DNA of 64,000 bases from an uncultured Gammaproteobacteria bacterium (lineage in GTDB: Bacteria; Patescibacteriota; Microgenomatia; Levybacterales; GWA1-39-11): contig CAYMYC010000001.1 of NCBI GenBank assembly GCA_964394645.1, forward strand, positions 274,052 to 338,051, in the 5' to 3' direction. Shown here in pieces: positions 26,402 to 42,347 of this stretch. A model generated the notes under the pieces. It saw nothing but the letters and a program-made list of their open reading frames with translations. It did not search any database and was not told the DNA's origin. The position numbers were made by a program, and so were the translations under genes. Within the stretch, counting starts at the first letter, position 1, and each line of letters begins with the position of its first letter.

Positions 26402-27979
26402 ATGAGTCAAATTTCACCTCAATTAAGAGCAACATTATCAGGATTTAACGGAGGATCTAATGGAAGAAAAGCAAAGTCTCCTGAAGAATTTTTCGAGCGA
26501 TGGCTAGTATTCAAAACCAAAAAAGCGAAAATGCCCGGCGTTAAGAAAGTTATAGATGAAGCAATAGGGAAAAAGGGTGAGGTATTGCAAATAATTGCAG
26601 AGTTTTTTCAAAATAGGCAAAATGGCACAGGCAACTTTCAGGATAAATACATACAAAAAGCTAATAAACCTTCATCAAAATTTAGACTTAACGAAAAACA
26701 AATTGATCTTTCAGAAATAACATTGAGTCCGGATCAAGAAAAAATTCTCGGCTTACTTCAGACTTCAAAAACTCCCATATTTCTCACCGGAAAGGCAGGG
26801 ACTGGTAAATCTTTACTCTTACAATATTACCGGCAAAAATCCAACAAAAACATCGTAGTATGTGCTCCAACCGGAGTTGCTGCGCTTAATATTGGAGGAC
26901 AAACTATTCATTCACTTTTTAAAATACCACCTGAACTTATCAGAAAGGATAGCTTAAAGGTCGAAAAAAGAGCCGCAAAATTACTAAAGCATGTAGACGT
27001 TTTAATTATTGATGAGATATCAATGGTTAGACCAGACCTCATGGATGCTATTGACTATGTACTTAGAAAGGCAAGAAGTAGTTCGATTCCTTTCGGAGGT
27101 GTACAAATTATTATGTTCGGGGATCTTTTCCAGCTCCCTCCGGTTATACAGAAAGAAGTATCCGACTATTTCGAGCAAAATTATGGAGGAAATTTCTTTT
27201 TCAATGCAGATGTTTGGAAGAATATAAAATTTGATATCCGAGAGCTGACGACTGTATTCCGTCAAAAAGATGAGGACTTCAAAAGTGTGCTTAATGCGGT
27301 ACGGGAGGGAACAATAACAGATGAACAAATAATGGTTCTTAATAAAAGGGCTGGTGCTGAAATTCCTTCCGAAGGGGTAATTACCTTAACAACAACAAAT
27401 GTATCAGCTAAAAAAATCAACGAAACCAAGCTTAGTCTTTTGAAAGAAAAGGGGTATGAATACAAAGCTGAAATATCCGGGAATCTTGAGAAATCTGCAT
27501 ATCCAACAGAAGAAATATTGCAATTAAAGAAAGGCGCACAGGTTATGTTACTGAGAAACGACAAAGATAAACGCTGGGTAAATGGCACCTTGGGATATAT
27601 AGATTCTTTGAAGAATGACGAAATAAAAGTAAATATAGATGGGAATATTTATTCCGTTCCAAGGGAAACTTGGAAAAAAATCAAATATATCTTTAATGAA
27701 ACAACAAAAACACTTGAGGAAAAAGTGGTGAGCTCATTTACGCAATTTCCATTACGGCTAGCTTGGGCTATAACAATACATAAATCACAAGGTCAGACCT
27801 ATAATTCAGTAGCTATCGATATGGGGTTCGGTGCCTTTACCTATGGACAAACGTATGTAGGGCTTAGCCGGTGCAAGTCTATAGATGGTTTATACCTAAA
27901 AAGAAAAATATCGAGGGAAGATATTATTGTAGAACCTAAAATTATTAATTTTATGAAGAATATTAATATTGATAAGTAG
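26402..27979 (+). CDS. Pif1/RecD-family (AAA_30-type) 5'-3' DNA helicase
   Basis: Walker A LTGKAGTGKS, Walker B VLIIDEISMV, motif III-like MFGDLFQLPPV, and a C-terminal SH3-like/UvrD_C_2-like end (WAITIHKSQGQTY ... YVGLSRCKS). Confidence 0.7.
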   Translation: MSQISPQLRATLSGFNGGSNGRKAKSPEEFFERWLVFKTKKAKMPGVKKVIDEAIGKKGEVLQIIAEFFQNRQNGTGNFQDKYIQKANKPSSKFRLNEKQIDLSEITLSPDQEKILGLLQTSKTPIFLTGKAGTGKSLLLQYYRQKSNKNIVVCAPTGVAALNIGGQTIHSLFKIPPELIRKDSLKVEKRAAKLLKHVDVLIIDEISMVRPDLMDAIDYVLRKARSSSIPFGGVQIIMFGDLFQLPPVIQKEVSDYFEQNYGGNFFFNADVWKNIKFDIRELTTVFRQKDEDFKSVLNAVREGTITDEQIMVLNKRAGAEIPSEGVITLTTTNVSAKKINETKLSLLKEKGYEYKAEISGNLEKSAYPTEEILQLKKGAQVMLLRNDKDKRWVNGTLGYIDSLKNDEIKVNIDGNIYSVPRETWKKIKYIFNETTKTLEEKVVSSFTQFPLRLAWAITIHKSQGQTYNSVAIDMGFGAFTYGQTYVGLSRCKSIDGLYLKRKISREDIIVEPKIINFMKNINIDK

Positions 27980-28005: not shown

Positions 28006-28761
28006 TCATTTTTCAAATTCTTTAACAGCACTTCGATATTTGCAAAAATCACAATCCTCACCTGATTCAGGAAGAACGTCGCTATGAAGGCATTTAATTG
28101 CGTTTGACACTGTTCCCTCAACCCATTCTGTATTTCCTGTATAAGGAATTAGTTTTATTTCAAATTCTAATTTTCCGTCAAATGCCTCTTTGTCAGTATT
28201 GCCATTGCAGTAAACAAAATAACCAGTATCTGAAACCTTAAAACCATTTTTTCTAAATAACCATTGATATATCTCCATTTGCCGTTTGTATCCATCCTGC
28301 CATTCTGCATCAAGGGTTACTTCTCCATCTTTAGCGGTAGCCTTATAATCTACTATTATCAACTCTCCATTTTCTTCACGCCAAACATCATCAACTCCTC
28401 CGGTGACCATGATGGAGGTACCATCAATCGGAACAGTAATCCCACGTCTCAAGCTATCTCTCCATTCGTCAATTTTCTCATGAGCAAATGGAATGGCATT
28501 AATTCCATATTTCTCACAAAGAGGGTGTCGTGTGCCATTGGAGCGATGAATATCAAATTCTTTTTTTAGTAGTGCATCAACTGCAGAATTTAGTGAAAAT
28601 GGATATCCAGGAGGCTGAGCAACACCTAGTCTTCTATCTAAGTAAAAACATCTAGGACATTTAATAAAACTGTCTATCTTACTCCTACTTAAACGAAATA
28701 ACTCTGCAGAACTCGGATCGTAGATATTTCTTTTTCGGTTAGGATGGTAATAATTTGACAT
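28006..28761 (-). CDS. RecB/Cas4-family PD-(D/E)xK nuclease with four-Cys cluster
   Basis: Motif II D in GGVDDVW, motif III IVDYKAT, a QxxxY-like EIYQWLF, and N-terminal CPRC plus C-terminal CDFC cysteine pairs reminiscent of the Cas4/AddB Fe-S arrangement. Confidence 0.7.
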   Translation of the reverse strand: MSNYYHPNRKRNIYDPSSAELFRLSRSKIDSFIKCPRCFYLDRRLGVAQPPGYPFSLNSAVDALLKKEFDIHRSNGTRHPLCEKYGINAIPFAHEKIDEWRDSLRRGITVPIDGTSIMVTGGVDDVWREENGELIIVDYKATAKDGEVTLDAEWQDGYKRQMEIYQWLFRKNGFKVSDTGYFVYCNGNTDKEAFDGKLEFEIKLIPYTGNTEWVEGTVSNAIKCLHSDVLPESGEDCDFCKYRSAVKEFEK

Positions 28762-28763
28762 TT

Positions 28764-31400
28764 TTATGTTTTTAGGAATGTAATAATTTCATTTAAGTCT
28801 TCAGCCTTTAATGGGTTTTGGGTGGAATTTTGTGTGGAATGGCTCCCTCTATTACTAAGCTTATTCCAGTAGCCGTTGAGTTTATCTATCTTTGTTTTAT
28901 CAATATTAATATTTTTAATTCCGTCCCAATTGATATTATTTCCTCTAACCCTGTTACGCAATAAATCCTGTTTATTCAATATCTTCTCGTCAATGTAGTA
29001 CTCTATCGCAGATTTCAAAAGACTAGAAACTACATTTACAGAATAAGATCCCTTCATTTCTCTCTCTGCTTTTTCAATAAAATAAGTACACGATTCATTC
29101 TGACTCTCTAAAATTCTTCCTGTCCTATCTTTAGACTCCCTTTCGACTGTATAGGTATGTACGTGGTGGCCTGCAGTGACACATCCACGCTCGATATAAT
29201 TTTTGCAAACATGATGGGTTCGATTACCATGATCATCCTTCAAATCACCGCACCAAGTTACTAATGAGTTATAAAAAAGCTTATCATGGGTAAATATTAT
29301 TATTTGTCTTGTTGCCGAAACTTGGAGCAATCTTTTTGCTAATAAATCAGACACTTCATGATCTACGCTTGTAACTGGATCATCGAACACTACTGGATTG
29401 CTCCCACCCTGACTTTCAATCTCTCCCAAAAAAAGAGCTAAGCATACCGCCTTTTGTTCGCCCGTACTTAGAATGTCCTCAACATCATTACCTAGAATCT
29501 TTAGACATGTACGAACAGTTCCTTTACCCGCCCCAGTTTTTTCCAGCGTAACCTCCACATCTTTACCTAAGGCTTTTAATTCTTCCTCAAATGATTTTCT
29601 AATAGAGTCTGTTAGAAGTTCATCATGAGCTTTTGATCCCAGAACTGTTATACCAGTTGTCAAAATAGTGCCATTTACATTCTCATATCCTTTTGCCTTT
29701 TTCTTTCCCTCAAAGTATTTTTCTATCTTTTCCTTCAATTTTGAAACGTTTTGCTTATCTTGGAGTTTCTCTATTTCTTCATTGAGCTTATTTATTCTTT
29801 CTTGCTTCTGAGATTCAGATTGCTCCAAGCCATCGACTCTTTCCTGTCTATCAGTAGTCATCTTTGATAGTTGTGTATCGATGTCGTACAGTTCGAGGTT
29901 ATATTGATTGCTTACCTGACTTCTCTTATTCAGGGATTCAACAAGGGCCTCTTTTTGTTTTTTCGCTTCTGCAAGAACCCGACTAACTACCTCACTCAGA
30001 CTTTTATTCTGTTCTATTTCTTGTTCAGAAAGTATTTTTTGTAAATTGTCAGAAGCATTGAAGTCGAATACGATCTTTTCAAGAGAACCTAGCAGTATAT
30101 TAATCCCATTTTCTGCTTTCCTGAAATCTGCCTGAGACTGATCGTTGAGATATTCAGAATATGCCTTTGTAAGCTTTAGGGCATCTTCTCCTAATGGCTG
30201 ATGGCAATAAACACACTTCTCATCTTTATTAAAAGTATTTTGATCAACGGCAACTCCATACTTTTCGGCTGCCTCCACAAAAGACTGCCATTCATCTGAT
30301 TCTTGAGACGGAACACTTTTCAACACTTCAAATTGTTTTGCTCTTTCATCTCTGATTTTCTTTTTGCTTATATAATTGGGAATTGATGCAGAGACCTGTC
30401 CTGTTAATGACTCAAGAGAAGATTTAAGTTTTACTAAATGATTTTTTAATGCGTCGATCTCGGTTTTCTCCTGATTTAGTAATTTTTTACTGTCATCTAC
30501 ATTCTTCTTTTCCAATTCTTGCTTCAATTGAATCCACTGTCCCAATTTTGCAATTTCTTCTTTGGAAATCGATAAATAATCTGCAAGTACTTTGCTATTG
30601 TCATCCGATAAAGAATCCTCTTGAAGGATCCATTTAAGATCCTGCGAGTGCAAATCATCTATCAATGGTTGCATATCGGGGCATAGATTTTCTTGTTCTC
30701 TTTGAAGTCCTTCGAGCCTTTTTTTTAGATCGTCTATTGTTGATGCAATAATTTGAAAAAGGTTTAACCCTAGCGGTTCTATGTTTACAGAATTTTCTCT
30801 TTCATGCAAAAATACTGGCAAGTAATCGGAGTCGAAAACTTTGATTCTATTAAATGGTATGATTCCACGGCTGTGCTTATCTTGCCATTTATAGCCTTGA
30901 GTAACTCCACCAAGAGAATATTCAACATCAACCTCTAATCCATCTTCTTGCCCATGTATATTATTCAAAATGCTTCTGTGTTGTATACCTCCAGCAACTT
31001 CGTGAAGTATTCTAAAGTAACCGCTCTTACCAGTTCCGTTTAATCCAAAAACAACAGTACAAGCAGGACTGAAAGTAATCGACTGATTTGGAATTAAAGC
31101 ATTAACACCATTTACGTGTGTTATTTTCCTTAGAATCAACTGTTGTGGATTTGTGCTTAGAGGTGGGTTTTGTTCTTCTGCTCGTGTGGCTGTGTCTTCC
31201 AAAGATTGAGTTTGATCGCCTGAATTTAGGTTATTCTCTTGAAGTAACAGGGTGAAAATCGAGTCTTTGTCGGAGTCTGTTAGTTTTCCATTAGTGTCAA
31301 TACACCTCTGGATTAGCGTACCTAGCCAAGTAGGAGTTGTACTTCTATTTTTATATTCGAGCAGGTAATCGGTTGCATGAGTTTTATTTGTTGCGTCCAT
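28764..31400 (-). CDS. ABC/SMC-like ATPase with long coiled coil, CxxC zinc hook and His-rich C-terminal domain (RloC/PrrC-like architecture)
   Basis: Walker A FGLNGTGKSG, ~450 aa of coiled coil containing CVYCHQPLGE, ABC signature LSTGEQKAV, Walker B PVVFDDP, H-loop IIFTHD, then a ~190-aa His-rich tail (HGNRTHH ... AGHHVH). The stop is 3 nt before the nuclease gene. Confidence 0.55.
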   Translation of the reverse strand: MDATNKTHATDYLLEYKNRSTTPTWLGTLIQRCIDTNGKLTDSDKDSIFTLLLQENNLNSGDQTQSLEDTATRAEEQNPPLSTNPQQLILRKITHVNGVNALIPNQSITFSPACTVVFGLNGTGKSGYFRILHEVAGGIQHRSILNNIHGQEDGLEVDVEYSLGGVTQGYKWQDKHSRGIIPFNRIKVFDSDYLPVFLHERENSVNIEPLGLNLFQIIASTIDDLKKRLEGLQREQENLCPDMQPLIDDLHSQDLKWILQEDSLSDDNSKVLADYLSISKEEIAKLGQWIQLKQELEKKNVDDSKKLLNQEKTEIDALKNHLVKLKSSLESLTGQVSASIPNYISKKKIRDERAKQFEVLKSVPSQESDEWQSFVEAAEKYGVAVDQNTFNKDEKCVYCHQPLGEDALKLTKAYSEYLNDQSQADFRKAENGINILLGSLEKIVFDFNASDNLQKILSEQEIEQNKSLSEVVSRVLAEAKKQKEALVESLNKRSQVSNQYNLELYDIDTQLSKMTTDRQERVDGLEQSESQKQERINKLNEEIEKLQDKQNVSKLKEKIEKYFEGKKKAKGYENVNGTILTTGITVLGSKAHDELLTDSIRKSFEEELKALGKDVEVTLEKTGAGKGTVRTCLKILGNDVEDILSTGEQKAVCLALFLGEIESQGGSNPVVFDDPVTSVDHEVSDLLAKRLLQVSATRQIIIFTHDKLFYNSLVTWCGDLKDDHGNRTHHVCKNYIERGCVTAGHHVHTYTVERESKDRTGRILESQNESCTYFIEKAEREMKGSYSVNVVSSLLKSAIEYYIDEKILNKQDLLRNRVRGNNINWDGIKNINIDKTKIDKLNGYWNKLSNRGSHSTQNSTQNPLKAEDLNEIITFLKT

Positions 31401-31472: not shown

Positions 31473-32576
31473 TTATATTCCAGACTTAGTTCTGTTGTCT
31501 TGTTTACAAAGCATCTGACAATTTTCTGCAATAGTCTTTCCTCCCTCGTGCCAAGGAGTAATATGATCTCCTTCCATTTCGTCTAATTCAAAGTGGTTTT
31601 TACAAAAGAAACAAATGCCATTTTGTCTTTCGTATGCCTCGCGTTTCATCTTGTCTGTAAAGGCTCGAATTGAGAGATATTTCTCTTGGTGTGTCAGAAC
31701 ATATGGATAAATACCTGACTTTTTCGTAACGTCTTCATCCTGCATCATAACTTTTGTTTCTGTCTCCAGTTTTTCTGGATCAAGAGCCTCGTTTCTGAAC
31801 TGATTGTATAGTTCGCCCCAGTTCACACTGGCCATTTCTTTTCTATAGTTGGGGAAAGCCTTTCGTACCCAAACGATTACATCTTGAAAGTAGTTCCATA
31901 ATTCATCAGCATTTTCATCATGCTGGTGTTTGGCCATGTAATCTTCAATTGCCCCATTATTTATCCACGAGAGTGCAGTTTCTAAGTATTCTTGTCTTAT
32001 GGGTGATCCACTAAGTAGTGCACCACCATCATTAGCCAAAAGGTAGGCAACACAGTTTGTTTTACTGAACTTGAGCTTTGCATCCGAGAGCCAAGGGCCA
32101 GTGTATACAGCGTTTCGAAGCTCTTGATCTGTTAATTTTTCACCTGCGATATTGATAATCCTAAACCAGTCCAAGCGTTCTTTATCCGTTCCCTCACAGA
32201 AATAGATCATTAGTTCATAATCCAAAATCTGGTTTTGCTCCTCAAGAGTTAAGTTATGAAACATTGCTAATCTGCCATTAAAGTCTATGGAAAAATCACC
32301 ATTTACATATTGTGCAAGGCTGATAGTACGTTGTTGGCCATCAAGAACCTCATAGTCACCATCTTCACGAACTACCCAGTACATAACATTAAGAGGAAAT
32401 CCATTTTTGACAGTATCTATAACTGCATCCCGTTGTTTGTCTTTGTAGACAAACTCTCGCTGGTATTTAGGACGAATATCAAGTTTTCCGCCATAACCTA
32501 TCACGCCCTCTTCAGCGTTATCTTTATATTCTTTTACTACCTCACGTACTGGTATTCTGCGTAAATCAATCTTCAT
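31473..32576 (-). CDS. DUF262 (ParB-like, DGQQR motif) domain fused to an HNH nuclease; GmrSD-like type IV restriction-type protein
   Basis: N-terminal DGQQR motif (VLDGQQRTISL) and C-terminal HNH (CFFCKNHF ... GDHITPWHEGG ... NCQMLCKQDN). Confidence 0.65.
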   Translation of the reverse strand: MKIDLRRIPVREVVKEYKDNAEEGVIGYGGKLDIRPKYQREFVYKDKQRDAVIDTVKNGFPLNVMYWVVREDGDYEVLDGQQRTISLAQYVNGDFSIDFNGRLAMFHNLTLEEQNQILDYELMIYFCEGTDKERLDWFRIINIAGEKLTDQELRNAVYTGPWLSDAKLKFSKTNCVAYLLANDGGALLSGSPIRQEYLETALSWINNGAIEDYMAKHQHDENADELWNYFQDVIVWVRKAFPNYRKEMASVNWGELYNQFRNEALDPEKLETETKVMMQDEDVTKKSGIYPYVLTHQEKYLSIRAFTDKMKREAYERQNGICFFCKNHFELDEMEGDHITPWHEGGKTIAENCQMLCKQDNRTKSGI

Positions 32577-32577
32577 A

Positions 32578-33621
32578 TCAATTTTTAACTTTTTTATTTC
32601 TGATTAAAATACGTGCATATGTCTCTTTACCATCTATAGTAAATCTTTTTCCATAATTTGGGTTATCATCCACATAACGATCAATACCGATTATTTCAAA
32701 CTGTTCAGGGTTATACTTGTCAACAAAAGTAATTGGTACCCCCATTATACCGTCATAGTCAAAAGGAATATCCATATAACGGTTTACATTTATTGCATTG
32801 TAGTTATCATAATTGGAATATTCTTCTGGTGTATATTTTCTATATAAAGTCACTTCTTCGTGACGCTTTGTAGTTTCTAAATTGGTAAACCATAATATTC
32901 GCCCCATGCTAAAATACTTTATTCCGTCCACAACCCTTTTCCTTGACTCGGTAGGAATATCATAATCCATCGGAACTTGAAACCATTTAGTACCGCCATT
33001 GTCATACCCAAGCCATAATTTGTTGTCTTTGATCAGTTTAAATATTTCTTTATATGTAATGGCGTTTTGATCGCCTAGAATAAGAAACTTTTTATTGTGT
33101 TCAATAAGTTGTGCAACATACTCACGAAAAAGCGAAAACGGAGGATTAGTAACAACAATGTCCGCCTCTTTTAATAGCTCGACACACTCATTGCTTCTAA
33201 AATCTCCATTTTCTTTAAGGGGTTGAGAAACATTAGCATCGCGTTTTAATAACCACTCAACATCTGCTAAGTCAATTGCTCCGTCAGTATTTTCATCTGG
33301 CACCTCGTTAATCTCAATCTTGAACGGCTCTTTTCCTTTCGGTTTTAAGCCCTCCATATCTAAAAGGGAAAGCTGTTTTCCAGTAATCGGCGAACCACTG
33401 TAGCTAGTGGTAATCAGTTTCTTTAATCCTAAGGCGTTGAAGTTGGAGGCAAAATATTTAAAAAAGTTACTCTCAAAAGGATCATCACAATTGCAATACA
33501 CTATTTTCTCACGAAATTGCTGCTTGTAGTGCTTCAGCTCTTTTTCAATATCGGTTAGTTGAGTATAAAACTCATCCTTTTTGGCCTTACTAGCTTTATG
33601 GAAGTTCGTATTTAATGACAT
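32578..33621 (-). CDS. N6-adenine DNA methyltransferase (EcoRI-methylase-like family)
   Basis: Motif IV VVTNPPF, an N-terminal KDEFYT region, and no detectable nuclease partner other than the adjacent DUF262-HNH gene; 1 nt from the downstream gene. Confidence 0.55.
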   Translation of the reverse strand: MSLNTNFHKASKAKKDEFYTQLTDIEKELKHYKQQFREKIVYCNCDDPFESNFFKYFASNFNALGLKKLITTSYSGSPITGKQLSLLDMEGLKPKGKEPFKIEINEVPDENTDGAIDLADVEWLLKRDANVSQPLKENGDFRSNECVELLKEADIVVTNPPFSLFREYVAQLIEHNKKFLILGDQNAITYKEIFKLIKDNKLWLGYDNGGTKWFQVPMDYDIPTESRKRVVDGIKYFSMGRILWFTNLETTKRHEEVTLYRKYTPEEYSNYDNYNAINVNRYMDIPFDYDGIMGVPITFVDKYNPEQFEIIGIDRYVDDNPNYGKRFTIDGKETYARILIRNKKVKN

Positions 33622-33713: not shown

Positions 33714-34001
33714 ATGCTTATTTATATGATGTATCCACCTATTTATTATGTTTATATAGCTGAATGTTCAGATAAAACATATTATGTTGGTCAAACAGCT
33801 GATATTAGTGAAAGAGAAAAAGAGCATAATGGGCTAGGTAAATTTCCTGGAGCAAAATACACAGAATCTAGAAGGCCTGTAAGGATTGTACATATAGAGC
33901 CTTATCATACAAGATCATACGCAATGCAAAGAGAGAAAGAACTAAAAAAACTGTCCCATGAGCAGAAGTACGACCTAGTTAATTGCTTAGCAATATACTG
34001 A
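33714..34001 (+). CDS. GIY-YIG nuclease domain protein (small, Slx1/UPF0213-like)
   Basis: YYVYIAECSDKTYYVGQTADISEREKEHN ... matches the GIY-YIG motifs with conserved Arg/Glu; 95 aa. Confidence 0.65.
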   Translation: MLIYMMYPPIYYVYIAECSDKTYYVGQTADISEREKEHNGLGKFPGAKYTESRRPVRIVHIEPYHTRSYAMQREKELKKLSHEQKYDLVNCLAIY

Positions 34002-34031
34002 ATTTTCTATATATTTTAATAATCTCTAATT

Positions 34032-34065
34032 AAGGGTTGCGCCCCTCTTTTGACAAGAGTAAAAG
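34032..34065. repeat. conserved ~35-bp hairpin repeat, copy 1 (AAGGGTTGCGCCCCTCTTTTGACAAGAGTAAAAG)
   Basis: Shares the core CCCCTCTTTTGRCAAGRGT and an AAGGG...CCCCT stem with copies at 35358 and 35909; lies downstream of the GIY-YIG gene. Confidence 0.6.
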
Positions 34066-34137
34066 AATTAAAAAATGTTTTTAGAGATACTTAGAAGATA
34101 CTTGTCATATACTTAACAAGTATGTTAGAATTAAAAC

Positions 34138-34437
34138 ATGGAAGATCAAAAAATCATAAATCCGCAAAAAGTTTACAACGTCAACGAGGCAGCAAAAGTC
34201 CTTGATATTAACGAACAAACCTTGCTTGATTATGTCCGCACTGGCAAAATTATTGGCAAAAAGATAGGAGAATGGAAAATACTAGGACAATCACTTATTA
34301 ATTTTCTCACTGCAGAGCCAAACGAGATAGAAAGACCAGACGAAGCAGACTTCTATGACCCCACATTGGGACAAAAAGGCTACGATATTACAAAAGGCGG
34401 CTTTGTTGATCCAGCAAAAACCCCTTGGGGAAAATAA
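34138..34437 (+). CDS. excisionase/MerR-like HTH DNA-binding protein
   Basis: VYNVNEAAKVLDINEQTLLDYVRTGKIIGKKIG resembles an Xis/MerR-type HTH. Confidence 0.4.
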   Translation: MEDQKIINPQKVYNVNEAAKVLDINEQTLLDYVRTGKIIGKKIGEWKILGQSLINFLTAEPNEIERPDEADFYDPTLGQKGYDITKGGFVDPAKTPWGK

Positions 34438-34440
34438 AGA

Positions 34441-34902
34441 ATGAAAGATCGGGCATCTTATCTAGGTACAGTATCTCTTAATTTCTTGCAACTCCCTGGC
34501 ACTATCGGCAATTGGCAATCGTACGAGACAGAAGATATCTTTGCAACAAATTTTATAAATGTTCCTCATGAACACCTTTATACAATGGGGTCTGGCATAA
34601 ATCCCTTACAAGGCACAGCTTTAGCTTCTCTTGCAACAATTCCAAATTTTCAACTTCCAACACAAACCCAATGGTATATAGCTGGACGTACAGTAGTTAG
34701 GTGGGGTGGAACTTCAGATCCAACAGAAGTAGACATTGATCACTATGGATTTACCCCAGTCTTTAATAAAGGAGTCGCCGTTGTGTGGAAAGCTCCTAAA
34801 TCTGAACCTCATCATTTGTCACAAATTCCAGACTTAATAAATACCGTACCGTCTAATTTGGTAGAATTAGTTGAGGCAATAAGAAAAGGAGAATTTAAAT
34901 AG
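34441..34902 (+). CDS. hypothetical protein
   Basis: Intact ORF starting 4 nt after the HTH gene. Confidence 0.3.
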   Translation: MKDRASYLGTVSLNFLQLPGTIGNWQSYETEDIFATNFINVPHEHLYTMGSGINPLQGTALASLATIPNFQLPTQTQWYIAGRTVVRWGGTSDPTEVDIDHYGFTPVFNKGVAVVWKAPKSEPHHLSQIPDLINTVPSNLVELVEAIRKGEFK

Positions 34903-34903
34903 C

Positions 34904-35326
34904 TTAGGCTGGTTTTGTTCCTATCCCTTGAGAAAAGCGGAGCAAATATCCGTCAGGGTCTTGAACCAGAATTTGTCTGCATCCATGCATTACATCGTTC
35001 ACTCTGTACCAGCTGTCTTCCAACTCTCTTCTCAGAGGATACCCACTGTTTTTCAGAGATTTTGCAAGTTTTTCCACGTCTTTTGTATTAATTTGAAAGT
35101 TAATTCCACGGCCTAATGGATATTCAAATTCCCCTACCTTATACTCATCATCTTCATTTGGATCAAGCTGCTGGATCATAATCTCACTCTCTTCAAAAGA
35201 CAAAAATGCGAACTTAGGGTTTTCCCTTGTGTATTCGACCTTAAAACCTAATACATCTTCATAAAAATGAAGGCTCTTCTCAAAATCAGAGACATATAGT
35301 TCCGGAAGAATAGTATTAAATTTCAC
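34904..35326 (-). CDS. VOC-family protein (glyoxalase/bleomycin-resistance fold)
   Basis: LYVSDFEKSLHFYEDVLGFK is a typical VOC first beta-alpha-beta-beta-beta module; 140 aa. Confidence 0.65.
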   Translation of the reverse strand: MKFNTILPELYVSDFEKSLHFYEDVLGFKVEYTRENPKFAFLSFEESEIMIQQLDPNEDDEYKVGEFEYPLGRGINFQINTKDVEKLAKSLKNSGYPLRRELEDSWYRVNDVMHGCRQILVQDPDGYLLRFSQGIGTKPA

Positions 35327-35357
35327 AATAAAATTATACCAAATTTAAGCATTCTAT

Positions 35358-35395
35358 TAAGGGGCTTGCACCCCTCTTTTGGCAAGGGTAAAAAT
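35358..35395. repeat. conserved hairpin repeat, copy 2 (AAGGGGCTTGCACCCCTCTTTTGGCAAGGGTAAAAA)
   Basis: Same core as copy 1; lies between the VOC and GNAT genes. Confidence 0.6.
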
Positions 35396-35410
35396 AACCA
35401 GAGATAAATG

Positions 35411-35899
35411 TTACCTATCTAAGTTTAAAGTAGCTTCCTTGCGATCTACTAGTTTAAATTCGACTTTTTCGTGAAGTTTTATCGAATTAGGGTTGTCTAG
35501 ATTAATTAGAGCCTGTATCTTTTTTATTCCTTTTTCCCTAGCTTCATTAATCAATTTTTTGTACAACAGTTGTCCAATGCCTTCTCTCTGATGGATTGGG
35601 TTAATTCCAACGTAACGAATATATAAAGTACCACCAAATGGAAGCGTTTCATAAGCAAGAATAAAACCAACAATTTTCTCTCCTTGCTCTGCTACAAAAC
35701 AATATCCAGTATCTATATTGGTTTGGAATTCTGATTTTCGGGAAACAAGATGAGATTCTTGCTCCTCCTGGCTCATATCATCAAACTTTGATCCCAAGTA
35801 CTGTCTTTGTGTCAGAATGTCGACACTGTGAACCTGCACGTAGTCATCAAGCTTCATCTGTCGAATTGAAATTTGATCCATAGCATAATTATAAGGCAT
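35411..35899 (-). CDS. GNAT-family N-acetyltransferase
   Basis: Acetyl-CoA-binding motif HQREGIGQLLYKKLINEA (Q/RxxGxG/A) and the family size (162 aa). Confidence 0.75.
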   Translation of the reverse strand: MPYNYAMDQISIRQMKLDDYVQVHSVDILTQRQYLGSKFDDMSQEEQESHLVSRKSEFQTNIDTGYCFVAEQGEKIVGFILAYETLPFGGTLYIRYVGINPIHQREGIGQLLYKKLINEAREKGIKKIQALINLDNPNSIKLHEKVEFKLVDRKEATLNLDR

Positions 35900-35908
35900 C
35901 GGTCAATT

Positions 35909-35945
35909 AAAGGGCTGACGCCCCTCTTTTGACAAGGGTTTCCGT
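35909..35945. repeat. conserved hairpin repeat, copy 3 (AAAGGGCTGACGCCCCTCTTTTGACAAGGGTTTCC)
   Basis: Same core; immediately upstream of the GNAT gene start on the minus strand. Confidence 0.6.
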
Positions 35946-36059
35946 TTTACTCCAATAAACTGCGCTTCGCTTGCCCTTGTAAAATTCACCCCGCTTTTTA
36001 AATTAACTTTCTATCTGAAAGCATGAGCATGCTTTCAGAAAAATAATTTTCAAGAAAGC

Positions 36060-36413
36060 GTGAGGAAGGGGGTGAAATATATGGAGAATTTAGTAACAGT
36101 TGACTATTCAAAATTCGGGTACAGAGAGTTAGATATTGCCGGAAAACTTTTAGCTATCTACTCTCAAGGTGGGGTTGACTTTTTGGAAGATGGAATAACA
36201 GTAAATTTCAATATGAACAGTGGCTATGTATTTTTGTCTGATTCAAACTATAACGTTGGGGTTTTAGCCGATGGAGAAACTCAAATAGTACAGTTTTTCT
36301 CATGCATGGAATGCGGTTATGAGGGTACTCAAGATGATGCCTTGATGGACGAAAAAGACTTCGTAACTTATGAGGGGTATTGTTCTGAAGAATGTTATTC
36401 TAAGAATATGTGA
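36060..36413 (+). CDS. hypothetical protein
   Basis: Intact ORF with a C-terminal Cys/Glu-rich stretch (CMECGYEG ... CSEEC). Confidence 0.3.
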   Translation: MRKGVKYMENLVTVDYSKFGYRELDIAGKLLAIYSQGGVDFLEDGITVNFNMNSGYVFLSDSNYNVGVLADGETQIVQFFSCMECGYEGTQDDALMDEKDFVTYEGYCSEECYSKNM

Positions 36414-36436
36414 TAGCAAATACTGCCCATTTGCTT

Positions 36437-37213
36437 TTACTTTACCCTTTTCCAAATATCGGAGGAGTCGTTTCGGATTATCTCTTTTGTTGTTAAGAAT
36501 AGAGATAGATCACTATTCTCTTTTTCAAGCTTTGCCTTTGCATACTCGAAAATATGTGTTTGCATGTTTTGGGAAGGTAGAACGAAAAGGATTTGTGGAA
36601 ACGGTGCATTATTGGTGTTTTCCTTCCACTTAGTATCTTGAGAATACACTATATACTGCTTTACTCTTTTTCTTAAAATGAAAGCCGGAGTATACGGATC
36701 AAAGATATTTAAAAGATACCTTCTAGTTTTATTACCGGTTTTAAACGCTATATATGCGCAAAGCTCAGTATCGGGAAAATATTCGTATCCGATTAAATCC
36801 GTTTCGGTAAAAAATTGCAGGGTTTCTTCTTTGTCCTTTTTTGAAAGAAAGAAAAGATACATATCTACAACAAACAGTTTGTGATTGATGAATTTATTCC
36901 CCCGTTTGTGTTCTTTATATATTCTTGAGTTAAAAGCATCGGTATCAAAATTTTTTTCATTTTTTAAAATATTTCTTGCAAGGGGTTTTAGAAAATATAT
37001 TGCGGGCTTGTTTCCTTCTTCAAACGATTTTCTTGAATAGTTAGTACCAATATATTTTTTGTCCTTTAGATCTTTAAGCCATTCTTTTATTCTGTGTGGA
37101 TCTTTGTGATTGAATAGTTTTTGAAATTGTAGAGTTGTTAAGAATCGAAACCTGTATAGATAGATTATTATTTCTTTTTGCTTTAGTGTATATGGTGAAT
37201 TTGTGTATTTCAT
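36437..37213 (-). CDS. replication-relaxation family protein
   Basis: The N-terminus LKQKEIIIYLYRFRFLTTLQFQKLF is the hallmark of the replication-relaxation (winged-helix) family that accompanies T4CP/FtsK-like ATPases on Gram-positive-type mobile elements. Confidence 0.5.
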   Translation of the reverse strand: MKYTNSPYTLKQKEIIIYLYRFRFLTTLQFQKLFNHKDPHRIKEWLKDLKDKKYIGTNYSRKSFEEGNKPAIYFLKPLARNILKNEKNFDTDAFNSRIYKEHKRGNKFINHKLFVVDMYLFFLSKKDKEETLQFFTETDLIGYEYFPDTELCAYIAFKTGNKTRRYLLNIFDPYTPAFILRKRVKQYIVYSQDTKWKENTNNAPFPQILFVLPSQNMQTHIFEYAKAKLEKENSDLSLFLTTKEIIRNDSSDIWKRVK

Positions 37214-37313
37214 TAATGGTTCTCTATATAAATATATAGATATAAAGGAGCAGAAAATATTTAATACTTCGCTTCAAAATTATTCAATTTCTGTACCCAT
37301 CCGCAGGTACATC

Positions 37314-40148
37314 TTAGTTATCCGGCAAACCGCTTTTATACTTGGTTTTTGTTTCCTTATTTACTTGTTTTCTTACTGCTTTATTTTTTATCGGAGCAGT
37401 ATAAACTCTGGCATAATTTTTTCTTGATGAATCAATAATTCTTTGTATTTTTTCAGGATCTTTCTTTATTATTATCGGTAATGTTTCACCGGAAAAAGGT
37501 TCTTCGGGATTTCCCGCCGACAATTTCATATAAAACTTGTATTTTGGAAGATTGGTAAAGTTATGTCTAGTTACTAGTGGCGCAAATTGAGATTCCATCA
37601 TCTGTTCATCTTGGGGTGATGCAGTTGCAAAACAAATAACGGTTCCGGTATTTGCTAAAATAACGTTTACAACTTGACGGTCTTGCTGTTGAGAGCTTGA
37701 TTGTTCGGCAAGTGTCATGCGTAATCCAAATTTACGGCCTCCGGATAATATTCTAGTAAAAGAAGTTGTTGCAAAATTTTGAAACTCATCAACAAAAAGA
37801 TAAAAAGGTGTTCTTTCCGCCGACTCCATTCTTGCACGTCTTAATGCTGCTTGATGAATTTTTGCAATAACTGTCAAGCCTAAGACCTGAGCCGTATCTT
37901 CTCCTATTTTTCCTTCCGAGAGGTTACAGATAAGTATTTTCTTTTGACTTAATATTTCATCAAAATCTATTGTGGACTTTTCCTGTTCAATAATTCGCTT
38001 TGCAGTTGGCGAAAAAAGGAAACGGCCAACTTTTGCCGTTACTCCTGAAACCATTTTTACAACCTGGAATGATCCGGCTTTCCCAAACTCGTTCTTCCAG
38101 AAGCTTTTTAAATTTTCATCATCAAGAGTACTGACAACTTTATTTCTGAATTGTGCATCGTTTATTAGGTTGTAAAGTGTAAAAAGAGTTCTATTGGGAA
38201 CTGCAAACGACGTGTAAATAGTGTTTCTTAAAATATATTCAATCCTATGAGCATTTACATTTTCTTCCTTTGAAAATATTCTCCTAAATACTGAGATTAC
38301 ACTTTCGCAAACCAATTCTTTTTCAAGCTCAAGATCCTCGTCTTCTAATCCCTCACGAAGCTCAAGCAGATTTATACCAATCGGATACTTAAGATCAAAC
38401 GAATTAAAGTATATAACGTCATTAATTCTTTCTTTGGGAACTGTTAAAAGTAAGCTTTCAGCCAAATCCCCGTGCGGGTCAATTACGGCAACCCCACGTC
38501 CTTTTTGAATATCTTCCTTTGCCATATGATAAATAATTGTTGACTTACCGCTTCCTGTTCGACCAAGTAGGTAAACGTGTCTAGCCCGTTCTTCATCGGT
38601 CAGTCCAATTTTGGTAACAGAATTACCATACGTGTTTTTTGCAAATATAACGTCTAGTTTTCTACCATTTTTTAAAGATAATGGTGCTGCAAGTTCAGGA
38701 CTTAGGGTTTTTACCATATCCTCAGTTTTTGTAGTGTTGGTGTATGGGAAATGGTAAATATCTGACATTTCAGAAGTTGATAATATTGGATTTTGGTTGA
38801 GAGATGTGCTTGATGCAAGAACTCTATTTTTAAAGTTAGAGAGGCGTTTATTTGTAGGATTTATAATAAATGACTTCTTGGAAACAAGACTTTGATAAGG
38901 ACTGTTAGTTAATCCAAAAGAGGAGATAATGCCTTCCATCCGCATATCTATATCTTTTTCCTCATGACCTGCAATAAGTATTCTTATCGTGCTTTCAAAT
39001 AGATGTTGGTCAATCTTGTCTTTAACTATAGTTTTTAGTTCCTGCTCGTAAGGATTAAGTATCTCTTGAGGAATATTAGTCATTTTTGCCATCATTAAAA
39101 ATGGGACAGTCTTTCCGCTTGAGTCAACGAACGCCATAACCATACTCCACAGAAACATAAGTGAAAAAGAGAATATCTTAATTAGGGCTTTTAACCCTAA
39201 AACAAAAATTGATATACCCGGTATTTCTCCAAGTTGGTCAAGAGGACTCTTGGAAAACGAGGACGTTAACGGTACGCCTTTGTACATTTTGTGTCTTAAC
39301 TTATTCATTTCTGCTATTTGTTTTATGTGGACACCTTTTAGTACAGGTGTTGTAATGACCTGAAATGAAACGAGCGCGTCTTTAGTAAGATTTGTCATAT
39401 GCCCCGTGAGATACGCAATTGGGTCATGCTCCTCAAGTGTTTTTTGTTTATTTAAAGGAAGAGCAAAATGGCTTGAAAGCTTAAACTCCGCAATACTAAT
39501 TCGTTTTTCTTCTAATTTTAGTTTTTCATCAAGATAGTCATTAACTTCTTTTATCTTTATTCCCGGTAGATATGACAAAAGACTTCTTTTCAAGACATCC
39601 GCATCCTTTAAAGGTGCAACGAGAAGAAATCTTATTCCTTCATTTTTTGTTGAAACAATTTCGAGTGAATATTGTTTCTTCTGACCTGTTAAATTTTCAA
39701 AGAAACTTTTTCTACGGGCAAGAGTATGAATGAGGGTATATAGCTCTTGTGTCGCATAAGAAGATTTACTCGTGTCTGAAGGAAAAGTTAATTCAAGGAA
39801 CTTCTTTTCCTCAGTTTCTTTTGCAAATCTTTTAAGAATCATTGGCGCTACCAATTTTGATATTTTAATTAATCCTCTGATTAGAAAATACAAAATTACA
39901 ATAGAAAGAATAGGACTTGTGAGGATAATAAACGTAAGAAGCATAGGTGGGATATGGGGCAAGGGAAGATGCGAGAAGTAGTTGTATATTGCAAGACGCC
40001 ATTCTATGGGCAGAGGCAGAACCATTAGCAATAACAGAGGTCCTTGAGTGGTTGATATCGCGTGATTTTGTATTTGATGCAACAGTTGTAGCTGTTGATA
40101 TTCAACAGCATTATGTGGAATAAATGTTGGTTGCGGACTCACGCCCAT
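37314..40148 (-). CDS. TraG/VirD4/TraD-like type IV coupling protein (conjugal DNA-transfer ATPase)
   Basis: N-terminal TM helices, Walker A LLGRTGSGKST, VAVIDPHGDL and Walker B-like FYLFVDEFQNF ... LAEQS; 944 aa. Confidence 0.65.
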   Translation of the reverse strand: MGVSPQPTFIPHNAVEYQQLQLLHQIQNHAISTTQGPLLLLMVLPLPIEWRLAIYNYFSHLPLPHIPPMLLTFIILTSPILSIVILYFLIRGLIKISKLVAPMILKRFAKETEEKKFLELTFPSDTSKSSYATQELYTLIHTLARRKSFFENLTGQKKQYSLEIVSTKNEGIRFLLVAPLKDADVLKRSLLSYLPGIKIKEVNDYLDEKLKLEEKRISIAEFKLSSHFALPLNKQKTLEEHDPIAYLTGHMTNLTKDALVSFQVITTPVLKGVHIKQIAEMNKLRHKMYKGVPLTSSFSKSPLDQLGEIPGISIFVLGLKALIKIFSFSLMFLWSMVMAFVDSSGKTVPFLMMAKMTNIPQEILNPYEQELKTIVKDKIDQHLFESTIRILIAGHEEKDIDMRMEGIISSFGLTNSPYQSLVSKKSFIINPTNKRLSNFKNRVLASSTSLNQNPILSTSEMSDIYHFPYTNTTKTEDMVKTLSPELAAPLSLKNGRKLDVIFAKNTYGNSVTKIGLTDEERARHVYLLGRTGSGKSTIIYHMAKEDIQKGRGVAVIDPHGDLAESLLLTVPKERINDVIYFNSFDLKYPIGINLLELREGLEDEDLELEKELVCESVISVFRRIFSKEENVNAHRIEYILRNTIYTSFAVPNRTLFTLYNLINDAQFRNKVVSTLDDENLKSFWKNEFGKAGSFQVVKMVSGVTAKVGRFLFSPTAKRIIEQEKSTIDFDEILSQKKILICNLSEGKIGEDTAQVLGLTVIAKIHQAALRRARMESAERTPFYLFVDEFQNFATTSFTRILSGGRKFGLRMTLAEQSSSQQQDRQVVNVILANTGTVICFATASPQDEQMMESQFAPLVTRHNFTNLPKYKFYMKLSAGNPEEPFSGETLPIIIKKDPEKIQRIIDSSRKNYARVYTAPIKNKAVRKQVNKETKTKYKSGLPDN

Positions 40149-40311
40149 ATATTTTGGGCAGCAGTAAAGAAAGTGTATCAGAGTGTATCAAAACGTAATC
40201 GAGAATACAATATTTAATAATTTCTCTAGGCTCTGCGAGAAACCAAAGGCTGCCTCTTTTAAACAGAGCTTAGAAAAATTATTTTTACCTCAATTTAGCC
40301 TCAATTACCCC

Positions 40312-40340
40312 TTGACAACTATACATATTTGTATATATAC
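40312..40340 (+). promoter_or_regulatory. sigma70-like promoter candidate (TTGACA-N16-TATATA)
   Basis: -35 TTGACA at 40312-40317 and an AT-rich -10 about 16-17 nt downstream; precedes the ATG at 40384. Confidence 0.3.
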
Positions 40341-40383
40341 TCTATACAGATATGTATATATAAAAGAGTTGGTATTTGTAACT

Positions 40384-40674
40384 ATGGAAGGCTTAGAAAG
40401 ACAACAAATGGTAGGTGAATCAGATAATAGACAAGGGATTTACGAAGAATTAAATCAATACTTCAATGACCAAAACAAAGAACAAAAAGCAATTTTAGAA
40501 GCACGTGAAATTTTAGGTGACTGTACAGAAAGTCTGACGGATGAAGAAATATATAACCTAGCAAGTGAGGCACAATATCTGGTTGATTGCTGGTTTGAAG
40601 AATTTGAAAAAAGTATATTTTTTGGGAAAACCTTAAATGATTTATTGGGACTTAACAGAAATGAATACAAATAA
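40384..40674 (+). CDS. small acidic hypothetical protein upstream of serine recombinase #3
   Basis: ATG at 40384 follows the promoter-like element. The ORF track's longer form (40183) begins upstream of that promoter, so the shorter start is preferred. Confidence 0.35.
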   Translation: MEGLERQQMVGESDNRQGIYEELNQYFNDQNKEQKAILEAREILGDCTESLTDEEIYNLASEAQYLVDCWFEEFEKSIFFGKTLNDLLGLNRNEYK

Positions 40675-42253
40675 TACATTTTCCGGAACGAAAAAGGCAT
40701 TGATATATATCCGTGTTTCATCAGAGGAACAGGTTGAGAATTTTTCTCTACAAACTCAGGAGGAAATATGCAGAAGAGATGCGAAATATAAGGGATATGA
40801 AATATTACAAGTTTTTCGAGAAGAGGGAAAATCTGCAAAAACAATTAAAGGAAGGCCAACTCTTCTTGAAATGCTTGATTTCTGTCGCAAGAATAGAAAA
40901 GAAGTTAGTGCGATATTTGTCTACAGGTTGGATCGCTTATCAAGACAAACCTCTGATTACTTAACAATCCGTGCAAAACTTTTAACTTATGATATTTCAA
41001 TTATTTCTGCAACTGAACCTACTGGAAATTCACCTACGGAGAAACTATTAGAAACTGTTCTTGCAAGCTTTGCGCAGCATGATAACGATGTTCGATCCGA
41101 GAGAACCAAAAATGGTATGAGAGCAAGATTTCTAGCAGGACTCATAACTAATAAGTTGCCACCCGGATACATCAATGAAGGAGGTTTTGCTGTTAAGGAT
41201 CCAGAAACGTTCGAAATTATAAAAAGAGCATGGGATTTAATGGCAACCGGAACGAAAAGCTTAAGAGAGATAAGGGAAATAATAGCAAACTGGGGATTAG
41301 AGCTAAAACCCTTAGCTGTTCATAGAATATTTCATAATAAATTCTATTGTGGATTGCTGGTCTCCCCGAAATATCCGGAAATAGTTCAAGGACAACACTC
41401 TCCTATGATTACAGAGGAACAATTTTATAAAGTTCAGGCAATTTTGTCAGGTCGGGATACAAATAGGCTTGTAATGCCGAGAAAAAGCAGGGACAACGAA
41501 GAGTTTCCTCTCAGACGAATAATGAGGTGTGGAAATTGTGGAACATCATTTACCGGAGCTAAAAGTAAAGGGCGAAGCACCCGATATTCATATTATTTCT
41601 GTAAAAAAAGATGCGTTACAAAATCAATCCCTGTTAAAGATTTAGACGAGGAGTTTTTTAAATTATTAAAGAAATTTACCCCAACAGAGCAAGGAATCAA
41701 ACTTTATACGGCATGTATGCTTAGAACTTACAATAAAAATTTATTACTTGTTCAGAAAAAGAAGAATATAGCGGATGAAGAAATTAAAAAACTTTATGGT
41801 TTGAGACAAACGCTTATTGAAAAGAATATGGCGGGAACATATTCTGATGAAATATTTAAAGAACAAAATGCCTTAATTGAAGACAAGCTTATTTCAGCAA
41901 TAGCTTCAAAAGATGATATCTTACTTGAGAAATATGACATTAATGCCATTACGGACTTTATTAGAGATAAATTTACGAATCTTAAAGAAACCTATGTTAA
42001 TTCGAGCCTGAATGTAAAAAGAGTGCTTCTTGGTTCGATATCACCCTCCGGGTTCTCTTGGGACTATCCGGGATGTTCGAACCGTGGGATTAGCCCGCTA
42101 TATCAACCTATTTTAGATGTTGAGAATGCGGGTGTTCCGTTTGGTGACCCCACGGGAAGTCGAATCCCGGTTACCAGAATGAGAATCTGGTGTCCTAACC
42201 ACTGGACGATGGGGCCTCTAAAGGTTGAACACATTAATCTTTCAACAACATGA
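40637..42253 (+). CDS. large serine recombinase; the annotated C-terminus reads through the adjacent tRNA gene
   Basis: N-terminal ALIYIRVSSEEQ, catalytic Ser in DRLSRQ, recombinase domain, and a zinc ribbon (CGNCG ... YYFCKKRC). The last ~35 codons overlap tRNA-Glu on the opposite strand. Confidence 0.75.
   Translation: MIYWDLTEMNTNNTFSGTKKALIYIRVSSEEQVENFSLQTQEEICRRDAKYKGYEILQVFREEGKSAKTIKGRPTLLEMLDFCRKNRKEVSAIFVYRLDRLSRQTSDYLTIRAKLLTYDISIISATEPTGNSPTEKLLETVLASFAQHDNDVRSERTKNGMRARFLAGLITNKLPPGYINEGGFAVKDPETFEIIKRAWDLMATGTKSLREIREIIANWGLELKPLAVHRIFHNKFYCGLLVSPKYPEIVQGQHSPMITEEQFYKVQAILSGRDTNRLVMPRKSRDNEEFPLRRIMRCGNCGTSFTGAKSKGRSTRYSYYFCKKRCVTKSIPVKDLDEEFFKLLKKFTPTEQGIKLYTACMLRTYNKNLLLVQKKKNIADEEIKKLYGLRQTLIEKNMAGTYSDEIFKEQNALIEDKLISAIASKDDILLEKYDINAITDFIRDKFTNLKETYVNSSLNVKRVLLGSISPSGFSWDYPGCSNRGISPLYQPILDVENAGVPFGDPTGSRIPVTRMRIWCPNHWTMGPLKVEHINLSTT
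42142..42216 (-). tRNA. tRNA-Glu (anticodon CUC) with encoded CCA
   Basis: Manual fold of the minus strand: acceptor GGCCCCA/UGGGGUC, D-arm GUCC-AGUGGUUA-GGAC, anticodon arm CCAGA-UUCUCAU-UCUGG (CUC), T-arm CGGGA-UUCGACU-UCCCG, discriminator A plus CCA. Overall similar to bacterial tRNA-Glu. Confidence 0.75.
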
Positions 42254-42347
42254 ATAATTATAACAAAACCGAGGCTAAAGTCAAAAGTCCTGCACTTGTA
42301 TGCCCTCAATTAATGGCTGATGTCGCCGTGGGTGTATTTTACTGTAT

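Follow-up and report, generated by a model that had tools for sequence, protein, structure and literature searches.

Architecture of an RloC-like ATPase

The 64,000-nucleotide stretch of DNA analysed here (the window; contig CAYMYC010000001.1 of assembly GCA_964394645.1) carries at 28764..31400, on the minus strand, an intact open reading frame whose translation of 878 amino acids (aa) is an RloC-like ATPase of the PADLOC family PDC-S06. The gene is the third of four co-directional genes and lies directly downstream of a restriction-modification (R-M) pair resembling type II systems. RloC and PrrC are the classic suicidal tRNA nucleases that back up DNA restriction, and to our knowledge the structure of neither has been solved. 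RloC has been defined by ATP-binding cassette (ABC) motifs, a coiled-coil insert with a CXXC motif, an Arg-X3-Glu-X36-52-His triad in which a Ser often precedes the His, and a length of 658-897 aa, and it has been described as a wobble-nucleotide-excising tRNase regulated by zinc and a DNA-dependent ATPase (PMC2610378). Our analysis indicates that it is largely right to regard the window protein as a divergent relative of RloC, one that joins a Rad50-like ATPase and a zinc hook to a domain of the tRNA-cutting type; its 878 aa fall within the size range of the RloC proteins, such as those of Geobacillus kaustophilus and Acinetobacter baylyi (Davidov & Kaufmann 2008, PMC2610378).

The protein, all parts of which are encoded on the minus strand, begins with a three-helix domain (residues ~1-60; 31221..31400) that is conserved throughout the family (K6, A9, Y12, L13, W25, L29, I30 and L52 in the homolog alignment) and is modelled as helices 9-17, 24-35 and 42-55 with predicted local distance difference test (pLDDT) values of 84-91. 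Alignments obtained by tblastn with RloC-type proteins encoded on plasmids start within this domain, at query residues 2-23, and a variable linker of low model confidence follows it (residues 60-84). The N-lobe of the ABC ATPase head (residues ~86-211; 30768..31145) holds the Walker A motif GLNGTGKSG (residues 119-127; 31020-31046). The C-lobe (residues ~611-719, including the D-loop; 29244..29570), delimited by motifs and conservation, holds the signature LSTGEQ (STGEQKA, residues 645-651; 29448-29468), the Walker B motif VVFDDP (residues 670-675; 29376-29393) and the H-loop IIFTHD (residues 701-706), with its histidine H705 at 29286-29288. Between the two lobes lies a helical coiled-coil insert (residues ~212-610; 29571..30767), recognized from the secondary structure of an AlphaFold (AF2) model and from Foldseek. 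This model, which is also the source of the helices given above, was built on an alignment of 33 homologs of at least 28% identity and has a mean pLDDT of 78.7. Behind the head follow a family-specific beta module (residues ~721-765; 29106..29240), delimited by conservation and models, within which the His-rich stretches lie, and a C-terminal helical domain that resembles HEPN domains and is of the anticodon-nuclease type (residues 766-878; 28767..29105), delimited by conservation and profile alignment with hhalign.

A split ABC ATPase with a coiled coil, a zinc hook and an additional C-terminal domain had been proposed in a preliminary description of the locus made from the sequence alone, and this architecture is real: the motifs can be located, they are invariant and the model resembles Rad50, so that motifs and architecture are no chance pattern. 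Among the 33 homologs G119, N121, K125, S126, C396, C399, E648, D673, D674, P675 and H705 are invariant, and the ABC motif residues as a whole (119-127, 645-651, 670-680 and H705) are invariant or nearly so, as expected of an RloC protein. The separation of the ABC motifs by an inserted segment was borne out; about 450 aa of heptad-rich sequence had been estimated, the distance from Walker A to the signature is ~520 aa, and ~400 aa of this (residues 212-610) is predicted to be helical, with long helices such as 301-362. The sequence CVYCHQPLGE (residues 396-405), which had been taken for a hook of the Rad50/RloC type, retains this reading: the CxxC motif C396-V-Y-C399, followed by HQPL (30204..30215), has an invariant pair of cysteines and sits in a loop flanked by helices 369-381 and 405-419, near the midpoint of the insert. 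A helical insert with a central CXXC loop is again what RloC possesses, and zinc binding is predicted. RloC orthologs carry C-x-F-C-x-Q-P-L at the corresponding place (optical character recognition of Fig. S1, PMC2610378), so that the window protein and RloC share ABC motifs, coiled-coil insert, central CxxC and a hook context of C-x-[FY]-C-x-Q-P-L. A Pfam Cytochrom_C match to residues 393-463 (E=7e-5) was rejected as an artefact of the CVYCH sequence, since H400 is variable and the site lies inside the Rad50-like coiled coil.

The best match of the complete model in Foldseek was Rad50 (7zr1, E=9e-11), followed by the heads and coiled coils of SMC, JetC and LmuB. The window protein shares with Rad50/SbcC the split ABC head, the antiparallel coiled coil and the CxxC hook, but Rad50 has neither the N-terminal nor the nuclease-type domain. 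PrrC, too, is an ABC NTPase, whose Walker B contains DD and which has a linchpin His; the DD in the Walker B of the window protein and the His ~31 aa later correspond to D215, D216 and H251 of PrrC (PMC3025547). However, PrrC is ~400 aa long, lacks the coiled coil and zinc hook and is always linked to a type Ic R-M system, whereas the window protein has 878 aa, a 400-aa coiled coil and type II-like neighbours.

The PADLOC model PDLC04892 of PDC-S06 matched residues 6-877 at E=1.2e-200, over profile positions 2-837 of 843, i.e., over its full length; PADLOC lists PDC-S06 as a single-gene system and a computational candidate, for which no published mechanism was found. Three sister models, including PDLC04891 and PDLC04893, also matched (E~1e-92 to 1e-98), with the PDLC04891 alignment extending to residue 850, and PDLC04891 and PDLC04893 are at the same time the best matches of the RloC-type plasmid proteins. 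Pfam AAA_13 (PF13166), the family that covers RloC-like proteins, was matched by 24 of the 33 homologs (best E=6.8e-25, profile positions ~17-617 of 713). Other candidate families were rejected: the match to NCBIfam TrlF_fam_ATP was weak (52 bits against a cutoff of 350), and those to LmuB, mad3, DndD, AriA and GajA were weak, partial and confined to the ATPase lobes. A word-indexed search returned 71 relatives of ~878 aa, mostly from Patescibacteria and other uncultured lineages, and a scan of one genome per species returned 410 related loci from many phyla.

Two variant forms were seen within the family. A class of ~515-525 aa (P0153, P0177, P0193 and others) shares N-terminal domain, ABC head and R-x3-E...S-x4-H tail with the longer proteins and lacks the coiled coil and zinc hook, and so represents a PrrC-like short form within PDC-S06. 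Four homologs (P0051, P0057, P0058 and P0062) have exchanged the beta module and part of the tail for a longer C-terminus with a basic stretch at its end, and their alternative tail still keeps R-x3-E ... S-x5-H; one of the four adjoins two Fic genes and a RES toxin gene.

The C-terminal domain and its altered catalytic positions

A separate model of residues 706-878 (pLDDT 82.9) divides this region into three parts: the helix that ends the ATPase, the beta module and the helical domain. The preliminary description had regarded the His-rich segments HGNRTHH (residues 724-730) and AGHHVH (residues 743-748) as part of a possible effector domain. As nuclease motifs they do not hold, because they belong to the separate beta module (strands 729-732, 745-756 and 759-765 in the models) and only H730 and H746 among their histidines are conserved. 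In an alignment of 142 family sequences the conserved positions of the module are H730 (122/142), C732 (120/142), C740 (115/142) and H746 (126/142), and H724, H729, H745 and H748 are variable. Their arrangement on beta hairpins, H730-x-C732-x7-C740-x5-H746, is probably a zinc knuckle, judging from conservation and models. Neither the RloC-type plasmid proteins nor the four homologs with the alternative tail have this H-C-C-H module, and its position before the putative nuclease domain distinguishes the window protein from RloC.

The helical domain is conserved in the same alignment at E800 (133/142), D804 (140/142), E805 (125/142), S849 (141/142) and H854 (142/142), residues that belong to the motifs K796-x3-E800-x3-D804-E805 (K796-E800 at 29001-29015) and S849-N-R851-G-S-H854 (28839-28856). 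Tail-only sequence searches of Pfam and the PDB gave noise, and when 1.84 billion representatives were searched with a profile of the tail, only 140 proteins were found, which for the most part are ~830-880 aa long and of the same architecture. A tblastn search of plasmids returned 200 records with related genes annotated as 'AAA family ATPase'. Ten of the encoded proteins, 847-900 aa long and with an invariant R-x3-E-x48-52-H in their tails, served as the comparison set, and their 'RloC-type' label rests on the published motif definition, not on a characterized RloC. When the family alignment of the helical domain was compared with these ten tails in hhalign, the two profiles aligned over 86 columns (95.7%, E=9.8e-9, score 52.3), with LK796SAIE800 falling opposite LRxxxE and H854 opposite the invariant His. 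The reversed profile scored 16.5 and 20 column shuffles scored at most 14.7, and a smaller alignment gave the same register (66.5%, E=5e-5). The suspicion that the final ~190 aa might be anticodon-nuclease-like is thereby upheld for residues 766-878, where the triad columns align and the controls are negative, though not by way of the His-rich stretches. The possibility raised at the same time, that the tail might be merely a structural or dimerization domain of SMC-like proteins, gives way to the homology with RloC-type proteins.

The window protein accordingly shares with RloC a C-terminal helical domain with a basic-x3-Glu ... Ser-His pattern. The Glu and His of the triad are present as E800 and H854, S853 stands immediately before the His, as a Ser does in three of the ten plasmid proteins, and S849 is invariant. 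We consider it very probable that head, hook and tail are homologous, at the family level, to those of RloC-type proteins. The Foldseek matches of the tail were HEPN proteins, with 2q00 the best, followed by 2hsb, 7bxo and 7ae6; weak as they are, these matches agree with the assignment of the PrrC and RloC nuclease domains to the HEPN fold (PMC3710099).

Position 796 is Arg in 85 and Lys in 57 of the 142 family sequences, and the residues near H854 change with it. In an R-type clade 52 sequences have R796, an Arg at -7 from the His and a Gly at -3, which gives R-x3-E ... R-x6-H, exactly the pattern of PrrC. In a K-type clade of ~55 sequences, which includes the window protein, position 796 is Lys, position -7 is not Arg and R851 occupies -3. 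Both arginine positions of PrrC and RloC thus change together in the K-type clade. The HEPN motif Rx4-6H, whose spacing the R-type clade has in R-x6-H, is replaced in the window protein by R851-x2-H854.

Several observations, in addition to the motif-based label of the plasmid set, weigh against reading the window protein as an RloC-like nuclease. The first triad position is K796 instead of the Arg of RloC, the second Arg lies at -3 instead of -6 to -7, position -7 being taken by K847, and the spacing from Glu to His is 53, one above the published range of 36-52. In PrrC, R320K and R349K are inactive and toxicity is abolished, R349 and N352 being essential as well (PMC3025547). The window protein itself does not reach E<=0.1 with Pfam AAA_13, nor does the PADLOC PrrC hidden Markov model match it at E<=0.1; in relatives this model covers only the C-lobe of the ATPase, and the window protein gave no match to the PrrC nuclease region. 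The HEPN matches of the tail are not significant (best E=0.26). The literature shows PDC-S06 solely as a computational candidate, and no experimental test of any member was found in it. The earlier proposal of an RloC homolog stands as regards architecture, hook and tail homology, and has to be amended at the active site, where the first triad Arg is Lys and the second has moved. Given K796, the shifted Arg and the inactivity of R320K and R349K in PrrC, RNase or tRNase activity is not assured.

These substitutions raise the question of whether the tail is homologous to that of RloC but catalytically dead as a nuclease, serving instead as an RNA- or protein-binding regulatory module, with the adjacent restriction enzyme, or another effector, using the protein as its sensor or scaffold. 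The Lys at the first Arg position, the lack of an Arg at -7 and the loss of activity in the two PrrC mutants would fit such a role, and HEPN domains without the motif are described as non-catalytic binders (PMC3710099). However, E800, D804, S849 and H854 show little or no variation, and the nearly invariant R851 co-varies with K796 (K/non-R/R in ~55 sequences, R/R/G in 52), which looks like a catalytic residue that was relocated under selection and not like decay. The conservation within the K-type clade likewise argues for a site that has been rebuilt rather than one that has decayed, as far as sequences can tell. We regard a dead nuclease as unlikely, although the chance that the K-type protein acts as a tRNase appears, by analogy, to be close to even or slightly below it. 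The remodelled catalytic constellation and the H-C-C-H module suggest that substrate, chemistry or regulation may differ from those of RloC.

Restriction-modification genes, the Cas4-like neighbour and the surrounding island

The four genes are tightly packed on the minus strand, the methyltransferase gene being separated by 1 nucleotide (nt) from the endonuclease gene, this by 72 nt from the ATPase gene and the latter by 2 nt from a Cas4-like gene. The methyltransferase (32578..33621) is an EcoRI-like N6-adenine DNA methyltransferase (Pfam EcoRI_methylase 1.4e-138; PADLOC MTase_II 3.8e-126), and the endonuclease (31473..32576) is a predicted type II enzyme with a GmrSD_N/ParB-like and an HNH domain (Pfam GmrSD_N 5.5e-18, HNH 7e-11; PADLOC REase_II 1.6e-143). 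An EcoRI-like methyltransferase is thus paired here with a GmrSD_N(ParB-like)-HNH endonuclease and not with a nuclease of the EcoRI type. The same pair stands beside RloC-like genes in three other loci, so that the cassette seems to travel with them. All six close homologs examined (the window protein included) sit behind R-M genes on the same strand; in the other five these are AlwI with methylases, EcoRII with Dcm and Vsr, HpaII with Dcm and Vsr, a type I HsdS-HsdR pair (in Legionella) and an N6_N4 methylase with a ResIII helicase-nuclease.

At ~60 more distant loci, where two genes per side were scanned, the commonest upstream families were Methylase_S (12), N6_Mtase (7), YhcG_C (6) and HsdM_N (5), and the commonest downstream families HSDR_N (8), ResIII (7) and T1R_D3-like (6). 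These counts point to the order hsdM-hsdS-(YhcG)-X-hsdR, as in the prr locus of Escherichia coli (prrA-prrB-prrC-prrD), which, along with the ~520-aa short form and the catalytic pattern of the R-type clade, makes for a likeness of the family to PrrC. Linkage to R-M genes is also a feature of RloC, yet RloC is reported to be rarely linked to them, and then to type I or III systems, whereas close relatives of the window protein follow type II systems (EcoRI-like methyltransferase with HNH endonuclease, HpaII, EcoRII, AlwI). Fic genes adjoin some homologs, and YhcG or RhuM genes adjoin others. RloC-like ABC-HEPN proteins have been noted in R-M operons with Fic/Doc or RhuM genes (PMC3710099). The window protein resembles these in its ABC ATPase fused to a HEPN-like domain of the PrrC/RloC type and in its R-M neighbourhood (Anantharaman et al. 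2013, PMC3710099), but it lacks the canonical motif spacing, and the account of the subfamily given there contains no experiments.

The fourth gene (28006..28761, minus strand) encodes a Cas4-like PD-(D/E)XK nuclease (Pfam PDDEXK_1 2.8e-13). Its coupling to the ATPase had been considered unusual for an RloC homolog in the preliminary description, and a system of two genes, with the ABC ATPase as sensor and this nuclease as DNA-cutting effector, could explain the 2-nt gap on the same strand and the recurrence of the arrangement in the contig of the closest relative (P0003 and P0224), which is 80% identical and stands behind a methylase and ResIII pair. Among the loci examined, the two genes are together only in these two places: tblastn found no Cas4-like gene in the 92 other homolog loci searched, and PDDEXK_1 was not among the top neighbour families of the ~60 distant loci. 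The nuclease, moreover, greatly exceeds the ATPase in conservation and abundance: more than 8000 proteins are close homologs of it, and the top 120 of these are all ~251 aa long and share 75-83% identity, the few named ones among them coming from metagenome-assembled genomes of Patescibacteria. It also follows unrelated defence cargo, closing a cassette of DUF4145, HsdR, Fic and a DUF433/DUF5615 toxin-antitoxin pair in one genome and one of Shedu SduA, HsdR and an 828-aa GmrSD_N protein, with a 4-nt overlap, in another. Altogether it stands at the 3' end of different defence cassettes in four genomes (the window, L106, L107 and L108), with tiny gaps or overlaps. The pairing is therefore not a conserved one, and we hold a two-gene system to be quite improbable. 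The Cas4-like gene is probably a conserved Patescibacteria anchor next to a defence hotspot and outside the system, and it could be a shared downstream partner of restriction modules.

A DNA repair or chromosome-maintenance protein of the Rad50/SbcC or SMC type with a merely structural tail, suggested by the zinc hook, the coiled coil and the structural matches to Rad50, SMC, JetC and LmuB, is more improbable still, as the window and the homolog loci have no Mre11/SbcD or kleisin-type partner gene nearby, the tail shares homology with the nuclease domain of RloC-type proteins, PADLOC defence-candidate models match, and the gene is accessory, patchy and R-M-linked on an island with conjugation genes.

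This island is suggested by genes around the operon for a GIY-YIG protein (33714-34001), an HTH_17 excisionase-like protein (34138-34437), a Replic_Relax protein (36437-37213) and a VirD4/TrwB-like ATPase (37314-40148), and by a PIF1-family helicase gene (26402-27979, plus strand) that converges on the Cas4-like gene at a distance of 26 nt; the VirD4-like, Replic_Relax, excisionase-like and PIF1 genes in particular indicate a mobile element. A tRNA-Glu(CTC) gene (42142-42216) adjoins the genes of the type found on integrative and conjugative elements (window ~34000-42300); a search for att-like direct repeats matching the end of this tRNA gene found none. A 21-nt motif, CGCCCCTCTTTTGACAAG(A/G)GT, occurs three times (34040-34060, 35369-35389 and 35919-35939; 86-100% identity), in or near gaps between the open reading frames of the island; with the TTGACA box and short inverted arms that it contains, it could function as an operator, a promoter or a terminator. 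A promoter and terminator scan of the operon gave no enrichment over shuffles.

Proposed function and significance

The reading that we favour, on balance and by analogy, is that the window protein is a single-chain defence protein of the RloC kind, which would act by abortive infection or as a 'second line' and cut tRNA anticodon loops. On the model of RloC and PrrC, the ATPase heads would dimerize in a nucleotide-driven manner and the zinc hooks would pair two protomers. The Rad50-like part may then sense a DNA signal, either DNA ends or the failure or overload of the neighbouring restriction system under phage attack, upon which a conformational change would free the C-terminal RNase; this would cut tRNA anticodon loops, so that translation stops and the infection is aborted.

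Proteins of this kind are already known: reports from 2008 and 2013 described RloC-like ABC-HEPN proteins near R-M genes, and PADLOC already has an entry for the family, PDC-S06. What is new is the co-varying change of Arg to Lys with relocation of the second Arg and the H-C-C-H insert, both as read from the alignments, together with the consistent position behind type II R-M systems in genomes of the candidate phyla radiation. That the K-type clade, mostly from Patescibacteria and as a rule behind type II R-M systems, is a functionally distinct offshoot of RloC and that, separately, the Cas4-like gene is a shared partner are propositions that we think unlikely; if the offshoot is indeed distinct, its rebuilt active site and added H-C-C-H module could give it a different RNA target, a different cleavage chemistry or a new coupling between a translation-killing nuclease and type II restriction.

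Overall, the finding extends a known defence theme by a small step and introduces no new principle. The family is tightly linked to many types of R-M system, including type II systems in bacteria of the candidate phyla radiation, and two arginines that are essential in PrrC according to mutagenesis are exchanged in it naturally and in a co-varying manner. Active K-type proteins would show which active-site geometry is truly required and would give PDC-S06 a mechanism; inactive ones would show how a toxin domain is turned into a sensor.

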